IMG/VR virus record: IMGVR_UViG_3300021255_001652
Location: 1 to 48,714 of that record
Source of the DNA: a virus
Direction: 5' to 3' (one strand)
DNA: 48,714 bases
A model generated the notes under the pieces. It had not been told where the DNA came from. It ran no database searches and saw only the letters and a program-made list of their open reading frames with translations. This document shows, piece after piece, positions 23,720 to 23,765 of the stretch. Position numbers and translations under genes: made by a program. Every line of letters starts with the position of its first letter. Position 1 is the first letter of the stretch.

Positions 23720-23765
23720 TGTGATATAATATAAATAAAAAATCTCCTATTTATATTATATCACA
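23720..23765. promoter_or_regulatory. 18-bp perfect palindrome (tgtgatataatataaata / tatttatattatatcaca, 10-nt spacer) carrying TGaTATAAT extended -10-like motifs on both strands
   Basis: seen directly; lies ~90-130 nt upstream of the giant late gene start (23633, minus strand) and just downstream of the tape-measure operon. Confidence 0.6.

Follow-up and report, generated by a model that had tools for sequence, protein, structure and literature searches.

An exact inverted repeat over the promoter of a giant phage gene: a candidate AU-rich terminator with a restart promoter in its 5' arm

The 48,714-nt virus record IMGVR_UViG_3300021255_001652 (IMG/VR), analysed here over its full length and referred to as the window, carries a perfect 18-bp palindrome between its tape-measure gene and a giant gene, and both arms of this palindrome contain a perfect extended -10 promoter motif. 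What would such a symmetrical element do at this position? The original prediction, made from the sequence alone, offered an operator for a dimeric regulator, a late promoter that needs activation or a pair of face-to-face promoters. We arrive at a different answer, in which the palindrome would be an AU-rich intrinsic terminator of the upstream transcription unit with a restart promoter inside its 5' arm. We hold this tentatively, as the best explanation and still slightly more apt to be wrong than right.

The repeat and the promoter within it

The palindrome (23720-23765) reads tgtgatataatataaata-aaaaatctcc-tatttatattatatcaca and is an exact 18-bp inverted repeat around a 10-nt spacer; TGATATAAT (TGnTATAAT) is present at 23722-23730 on the plus strand and at 23763-23755 on the minus strand, as originally described. 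No simulation contained a perfect inverted repeat longer than 16 bp for the whole window (n = 200, first-order Markov, loop 3-30) or longer than 17 bp for the local composition (n = 300, 6 kb, 14% GC). Folding z-scores of the palindrome region were -8.6 to -9.9. The promoter motif itself is over-represented, with 19 occurrences of TGnTATAAT in the window compared with 8.3 expected, a count that no shuffle reached. Copies of the 18-mer arm with one to three mismatches are found at 34802, 37395, 38726 and 40209, each shortly before a plus-strand gene, in agreement with the earlier remark that the motif recurs ahead of the early genes. A search for the palindrome and its half-sites, proposed together with that remark, had a divided outcome: the half-sites recur, but the complete palindrome is present in the window only once. 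An exact-pattern scan of IMG/VR for the whole palindrome produced no match, and a looser scan of the same collection with 13-bp arms produced 37 loci, mostly AT-rich giant-virus contigs, that represent chance palindromes.

On the minus strand, which encodes both flanking genes, the arm forms part of a sigma-A-type promoter, TTGCAA-17-TGATATAAT, with a TG extension and a perfect -10. From the spacing, transcription would start at about A23748/G23747, 7-8 nt past the -10. The -10 is located ~105 nt upstream of the AAGGAGGA ribosome-binding site (RBS) of gene 23633..18819, which matches the ~100 nt first estimated. We compared this arrangement with relatives gathered in a protein-anchored search, which gave 25 IMG/VR loci and 75 metagenome loci with an orthologous giant gene; one further contig, L026 from sample ERZ28612978, is identical to the window. 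The relatives seem to derive from metagenomes of rumen and gut. Amongst GenBank phages there was no close DNA relative, only short tape-measure matches, and the single GenBank relative, which shares 41% identity in the N-terminal domain, is Phage Phass-1, described as a member of the 'Caudoviricetes code 15 clade' with Clostridia as predicted hosts (PMC10607447).

At nearly all of ~80 related loci, a TTGAAA/TTGACA-like hexamer and TG-n-TATAAT are separated by exactly 17 bp upstream of the giant-gene orthologue. Using a weight matrix made from 52 distinct orthologous promoters, with the window left out, the sense promoter ranks second of ~97,000 window positions. In the distant Phass-1 there is no promoter here and the next RBS directly follows the tape-measure stop. 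Its conservation and its rank mark the minus-strand arm as a genuine promoter of the giant gene, as had been predicted. The idea of a late promoter in need of activation fared less well: the -35 is good and the promoter is of the same type as those of the TAG-free early genes (the plus-strand genes at 34847-41615 contain no TAG), so there is no sign that an activator is needed. TAG-free early genes and recoded late genes are the usual pattern in such phages (bioRxiv 10.1101/2021.08.26.457843). In its TG, its TATAAT and its TTGCAA at 17 bp, in its conservation and in its likeness to the phage's other promoters, the element resembles extended -10 sigma-70/sigma-A promoters generally; it differs from them in that the -10 and the discriminator are repeated, inverted, 10 nt downstream.

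A hairpin with a U-tract and a missing terminator

Both genes flanking the palindrome are open only when TAG is read as sense. The 3' part of open reading frame (ORF) 32696..23976 matches annotated tape-measure genes; by its position after the tape-measure gene alone, the giant gene would be a tail gene, and sequence searches of Pfam, PHROG and PDB with its 1604-aa protein gave no match. The original prediction noted neither this reading of TAG nor a conserved 52-aa ORF (23949..23791) between the two genes. This small ORF is weakly XkdX-like (phrog_134, E=0.0018; sub-threshold PF09693 matches in three orthologues), and its RBS comes after the tape-measure stop with no terminator between. Its stop codon ends at 23791 and the stem of the hairpin begins 25 nt further on, at 23765, within the intergenic region from 23790 to 23634 that holds the palindrome.

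In RNA of the minus strand, the repeat folds into a 21-bp stem with the 4-nt loop GAUU (-21.1 kcal/mol, z = -8.8). The stem consists of 18 Watson-Crick pairs, two G.U pairs and one A-U pair, and UUUUUAUU follows directly 3' of it. RNA of the plus strand would have an 18-bp stem with a 10-nt loop and AAAA ahead of the U's; because of the G.U pairs, the structure is strand-specific. A stable coding-strand stem-loop 25 nt past a stop codon, an immediate U-run and an A-rich run upstream are features shared with intrinsic terminators, including the bidirectional type made of an A-tract, a hairpin and a U-tract. The stem differs from that of the usual intrinsic terminator in being nearly all A-U and long (18-21 bp), and also in that its 5' arm is the -10 of the next promoter, so that the terminator would act only on RNA started upstream.

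The relatives place this hairpin in a different light. Of those with distinct sequence and with the tape-measure end inside the locus, 52 of 52 have a GC-rich hairpin (-12 to -24 kcal/mol) with a T-run immediately behind the tape-measure stop (the printed value of -2.7 for L020 is a start-point artefact; the hairpin is visible in its sequence). After the tape-measure stop of the window there is no hairpin with a T-run: the best fold is -6.9 and involves the RBS, and the sequence past the stop, aaaatttcatatttAAGGAGGataatATG, is where the small ORF starts. At -21 kcal/mol, the hairpin at the palindrome is within the range of the relatives' tape-measure terminators. The window lineage alone has a long perfect hairpin and U-tract after the small ORF, and it alone has lost the tape-measure terminator; neither the coding-strand hairpin with its U-tract nor this loss had been noticed in the original account.

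The nearest relatives (L001-L004, 95% identity) retain the GC-rich terminator, and their version of the repeat is imperfect, with three mismatches and one G.U compared with the 18 pairs of the window, an 18-nt spacer and no U-tract. In the window the promoter arm is TGTGATATAAT, whereas most relatives have TATGTTATAAT; the two positions that differ are both free in the promoter, and both changes create base pairs with the other arm. We infer that the window lineage lost its usual terminator and would use the perfected hairpin instead.

A simple scheme would follow. Polymerase that has passed through the tape-measure gene and the small XkdX-like ORF would transcribe both arms and the U-tract, the RNA would fold into the 18-21 bp hairpin, and factor-independent termination would occur there. 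As DNA, the upstream arm of the hairpin doubles as the extended -10 element in a strong promoter of the host's sigma-A type. Transcripts from this embedded promoter would start in the loop, at ~23748/23747, and carry only the 3' arm; lacking the 5' arm, they would form no hairpin and would read on into the 1604-aa gene. The promoter look-alike on the plus strand would presumably be a by-product of the symmetry.

Several observations weigh against this scheme. The stem is not G+C-rich, with 2 G-C pairs in 18, both amongst the four pairs nearest the U-tract, and a scan for consensus terminators did not report it, because the scan requires three G-C pairs and a loop of 3-8 nt. Read-through polymerases would cross the promoter before they stop, and the hairpin would be no shield from occlusion. 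The association of terminator loss with hairpin gain comes from one lineage only, made up of the window and its identical counterpart L026. Finally, since L001-L004 have the imperfect repeat without a U-tract alongside a GC-rich terminator, the repeat predates any role in termination.

The other terminators of the window are also long perfect stems, often abutting promoters (Table 1). Three terminator-promoter cassettes were seen at 43804-43883, 37350-37405 and 40165-40219, in which a T-run hairpin runs into the -35 region of the TGnTATAAT promoter that follows. A terminator followed by a T-tract and a GGnCAAAAUU leader is seen again behind the RuvC gene (17495-17424), and once more in locus L132.

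Table 1. Coordinates of the palindrome, the elements around it and the other terminators of the window
Feature	Position	Strand	Details
Palindrome arms	23720-23737 and 23748-23765		TGATATAAT present on both strands
Sense promoter, -35 hexamer	23778..23783	-	TTGCAA, 17 bp from the -10
Hairpin 5' arm	23748..23765	-	UGUGAUAUAAUAUAAAUA; includes the extended -10 (TG 23763-23762, TATAAT 23760-23755)
Spacer	23738..23747	-	GGAGAUUUUU; G23747, G23746 and A23745 pair with U23738-23740; loop GAUU 23744-23741
Hairpin 3' arm	23720..23737	-	UAUUUAUAUUAUAUCACA; inverted copy of the -10/discriminator, in the giant-gene 5' leader
U-tract	23710..23719	-	UUUUUAUUAA; directly after the stem
Conserved leader	23660..23709	-	starts GGACAAAAUUAAAUAA (23707-23692); common to at least 16 related lineages
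Ribosome-binding region	23643..23659	-	GGGAGAUAUAAGGAGGA; Shine-Dalgarno (SD) sequence AAGGAGGA (23650-23643) after the conserved box GAGAUAUAA
Giant gene	18819..23633	-	1604 aa, 10 in-frame TAG; predicted to be served by the promoter
Small ORF	23791..23949	-	52 aa, two in-frame TAG; conserved in relatives, XkdX-like
Tape-measure gene	23976..32696	-	up to 2906 aa, 36 in-frame TAG, start not exactly fixed; assigned by DNA matches
Plus-strand promoter-like site	23702..23730	+	TTGTCC (23702-23707), 17 bp, TG (23722-23723), TATAAT (23725-23730)
Terminator	43804-43841		18 bp, then T8, then promoter at 43875
Terminator	10153-10203		23 bp
Terminator	17452-17495		after the RuvC gene

Other readings of the inverted copy

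The inverted copy may have arisen neutrally. In this alternative, which we consider unlikely though plausible as the origin of the repeat, the promoter is functional and its inverted copy was made and perfected by template switching (quasi-palindrome mutation) in a poorly constrained leader. An AT-rich, partly self-complementary -10 region would be a natural hotspot for such events; the leaders of relatives vary from ~10 to 120 nt between promoter and RBS, with many insertions and deletions, and inverted -10 copies occur at non-homologous positions across lineages. The promoter arm of the window also looks as if it had been converted to the complement of the other arm, already in L001, by two changes 3 nt apart. 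Template switching is known to generate and to maintain perfect hairpins, and it can make and perfect one in a single step (PMC8794818); high transcription of the DNA stimulates quasi-palindrome mutation (PMC3820800). The palindrome is like these hairpins in having a perfect stem beside its source and multi-base 'compensatory' differences from the nearest relatives. However, that literature deals with an origin and not with a function, and the window has in addition a U-tract directly after the stem and the lone loss of the neighbouring terminator, both of which a neutral origin leaves unexplained. Moreover, the complementary segment of the clade with a TATACT -10 is a conserved island in otherwise unalignable leaders, which suggests selection, and the other strong promoters of the window have no inverted copy of their -10. 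The only other window site with a reverse-complement copy of this kind is TTTGATATAAT at 2176-2184 (minus strand), inside a plus-strand gene, with the 9-nt copy TTATATCAA ~60 nt downstream.

The complementarity is in fact recurrent in the clade. A perfect reverse-complement copy of at least 8 of the 11 nt around the -10 is present in the leaders of 8 out of 30 representative long-leader lineages; in the controls, a direct copy was found in 1/30, a copy on the upstream side in 1/30, and copies of other 11-nt promoter windows in a mean of ~1.5/30. The -10 region TGATATAAT is matched by the leader copy ATTATATCA in the window, L072, L091 and L113, TTTGTTATAAT by ATTATAACAAA in L109, GGTATAAT by ATTATACC in L111, TGATATAC by GTATATCA in L080, TGGTATAC by GTATATCA in L085 and L104 (with one G.U), and TTATACT by AGTATAA in L017. 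The two segments are 3 to 48 nt apart in relatives, and they change together: A-T, T-A, G-C and G.U are all seen at the free position of TGnTATAAT, and TATACT is paired with GTATA. Variable spacing combined with concerted change fits base pairing rather than a fixed protein site.

A third segment may be involved. The core of the 3' arm, UUAUAUC, can also pair with GAUAUAA beside the RBS (in the window, 23728-23734 with 23649-23655). Pairing of the leader segment with the GAGAUAUAA box is the predicted minimum-energy fold in 8 of 8 promoter-started leaders (L072, L080, L085, L091, L104, L111, L113 and L117), where the box forms the 3' strand of the leader hairpin and ends 0-2 nt before the SD. 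The two strands show a G-C/A-U exchange, with UUGUAU/AUACAA in L013, L085, L104 and L105 and UUAUAU/AUAUAA elsewhere. Because the GAGAUAUAA box resembles a -10, part of the complementarity to the -10 may be incidental; the leader segment follows the -10 and not the box, however, in the window, L109, L017, L107 and L080. A U-tract after the leader segment is limited to the window and L109, and termination is therefore not the general role of the segment. RBS accessibility showed no clear difference between promoter-started and read-through RNA of the window.

These observations allow the palindrome to be seen as the extreme case of a leader device made of three segments and recurrent in the clade, a 'transcript-origin sensor', which strikes us as improbable. 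UUAUAUC may pair either with the -10 region, in read-through RNA only, or with the GAGAUAUAA box, and the fold of the giant-gene message, hence its termination or translation, would then depend on whether the message started at its own promoter or in the tape-measure operon. Such a device would be like attenuator leaders (1:2 versus 2:3 pairing) in that the leader segment is complementary both to the upstream -10 region and to the downstream RBS box. Unlike in attenuators, segment 1 would be present only in RNA started upstream, and the switch would report the origin of the transcript rather than a metabolite or translation.

The leader has further peculiarities. Ahead of the giant gene, ~80 nt are conserved in at least 16 lineages (GGnCAAAAUUAAAUAAUUUAU...UUUUUUAUA..UUAAUAU..GGAGAUAUAAGGAGGA), for which RNAalifold gave no consensus structure and Rfam no match. 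The first ~50 nt recur at 17439-17390 (minus strand), right after the RuvC terminator, with a weaker copy at 33323-33308 (minus strand), and in L132 the leader motif follows a terminator without a sigma-A promoter between. The conserved leader may act as regulatory RNA, as a site for a protein or as a promoter of a non-sigma-A type. Its GGnCAAAAUU was considered as part of a second sigma-A promoter and dropped, as it fits the window (TGGACA-17-TATATT, rank 13) and not the relatives. In L012, L023, L100 and L101, a different perfect 16-bp inverted repeat, TTGACAAGTGAAAAAA / TTTTTTCACTTGTCAA, surrounds the -10 of the orthologous promoter and lies ~40-100 nt before the giant gene. The -35 falls within the left arm of this repeat, and the lineages share identical arms while their loops differ.

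The face-to-face promoters of the original prediction are doubtful. Both arms would fire from starts ~10 bp apart, the overlapping polymerase footprints would compete, and the plus-strand RNA would be complementary to the transcript of the tape-measure gene and the XkdX-like ORF. The promoter elements are indeed complete on both strands: TTGTCC lies exactly 17 bp from the perfect plus-strand TATAAT, with an A-rich spacer and a TG, the site ranks seventh by the matrix, level with the accepted promoters 38706 and 34782, and its spacing of 17 bp compares with 23 bp for the equivalent motif of L001. Yet the plus-strand score comes mostly from mirroring a real promoter, and neither an ORF nor an Rfam family is found downstream on that strand (Rfam at E<=1 over 22500-25000 gave no match). 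The antisense hexamer is TATACA, without the final T, in L080, L085 and L104, the -35 is missing in L091, L109 and L111, and the G.U pairs of the window's stem extension, L001, L085 and L104 work on the sense strand only. In coliphage 186, pR and pL reportedly both drive genes and are tens of bp apart. The window is like coliphage 186 in having two promoter-like sites that face each other (PMC5001618, PMC3675496); it is unlike it in the closeness of the starts and in an antisense site that has no gene and is not conserved. By its sequence elements the plus-strand site is plausible; with neither antisense conservation nor a driven gene, the proposal is weak.

An element for RNA processing or stability is quite improbable. 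Here the duplex would be cut by RNase III, or would act as a protective 3' hairpin, and the messages would be separated without termination. At some two helical turns, the stem has a length that suits RNase III; the polycistronic RNA is the only one in which the hairpin forms, and L001-L004 keep the hairpin without the U-tract. In the window, however, the U-tract directly after the stem is the signature of a terminator, and most relatives have stems of 7-11 bp with long loops, too short for RNase III. The operator, in which a dimeric phage regulator would bind both half-sites and control the giant-gene promoter, has the perfect dyad symmetry over the -10 to recommend it and is nevertheless very improbable, given that the full palindrome is single in the window, that half-sites elsewhere are promoters without a partner, that the half-site centres are 28 bp apart, and that the partner segment of relatives varies in spacing and covaries with lineage-specific changes of the -10.

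Three further candidates were set aside: a cruciform-regulated promoter, as the spacers in relatives are long and variable; a phage attachment site at the palindrome, as the integrase gene is far away; and a small leader ORF, as the AGGAGA in the loop has no start codon after it.

Reading of TAG, other features and implications

Protein alignments also bear on the genetic code. We aligned the giant protein from 17 lineages and the C-terminus of the tape-measure protein from 23 lineages (the genes at 18819-32696 of the window, and relatives L001-L024). Conserved Glu columns contain TAG in some lineage in 15/18 cases for the giant protein and 19/25 for the tape-measure protein; for conserved Gln columns, the counts are 5/19 and 4/20. 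The TAG-rich Glu columns contain no CAA or CAG codons. From these columns, TAG in the clade appears to be read as Glu rather than as Gln (code 15).

In the relatives, a tRNA array immediately precedes the homologue of window ORF 76-822 and includes one tRNA(CUA) (arrays from L222, L226-L228, L245, L246, L249, L250 and L253). The first pair of this tRNA is G1-C72 or C1-G72, compared with A1-U72 or U1-A72 in the phages' own tRNA-Gln, and 9/9 of these tRNAs resemble the tRNA-Glu set of the phages slightly more than the tRNA-Gln set; BLAST against phage tRNAs returned mixed isotypes. For the conversion of Glu-tRNA to Gln-tRNA, bacterial GatCAB requires U1-A72, and GlnRS is absent from many Clostridia, so a CUA tRNA charged by GluRS would deliver Glu. 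In the literature searched, the phage codes that differ from the host's are TAG-to-Gln and TGA-to-Trp (10.1101/2021.08.26.457843), and no other reassignment was found. Two of the arrays have additional features: a tRNA with anticodon UUA, which reads TAA, at 5781-5855 of L246, and a transfer-messenger RNA with the tag peptide ADNYTYQMAA at 7627-7904 of L249.

Elsewhere in the window, an all-A/T 17-bp inverted repeat (11228-11263, 94% complementary, with TATAAT-like hexamers) occupies the short gap upstream of a tyrosine-recombinase gene (10199-11200, PF00589 E=9e-41) and may be regulatory or serve for attachment. The minus-strand genes at 12000-17300, one of them for a GDSL-lipase-like protein (12033-14006), form a block with a GC content of 35-41% compared with ~30% and almost no in-frame TAG, a composition that suggests a separate module. 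The plus-strand gene at 34847-37339 is free of TAG, and its 830-aa product matches the shoulder domain of the Major Vault Protein (PF11978, E=2.6e-22), which is unexpected in a phage. Two plus-strand genes resembling GIY-YIG homing endonucleases (44558-45322 and 47052-47762), one with NUMOD3 motifs, flank a GyrB-like gene (45315-46871).

A mirror-image '-10' is by itself no evidence for an antisense promoter, and AU-rich terminators in low-GC phages may escape scans based on GC content. The relatives raise the question of why the -10 region, the leader segment and the RBS box should be repeatedly complementary ahead of this one gene. If the palindrome is indeed a terminator with a restart promoter in its 5' arm, one 46-bp element would end the low-copy tape-measure message and start that of the next structural gene, a compact but essentially ordinary form of punctuation, to which the promoter's own transcripts would be immune because half of the hairpin is missing from them. 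It would also be a natural case of a terminator that has moved: the relatives stop after the tape-measure gene, and the phage of the window would stop one gene later.

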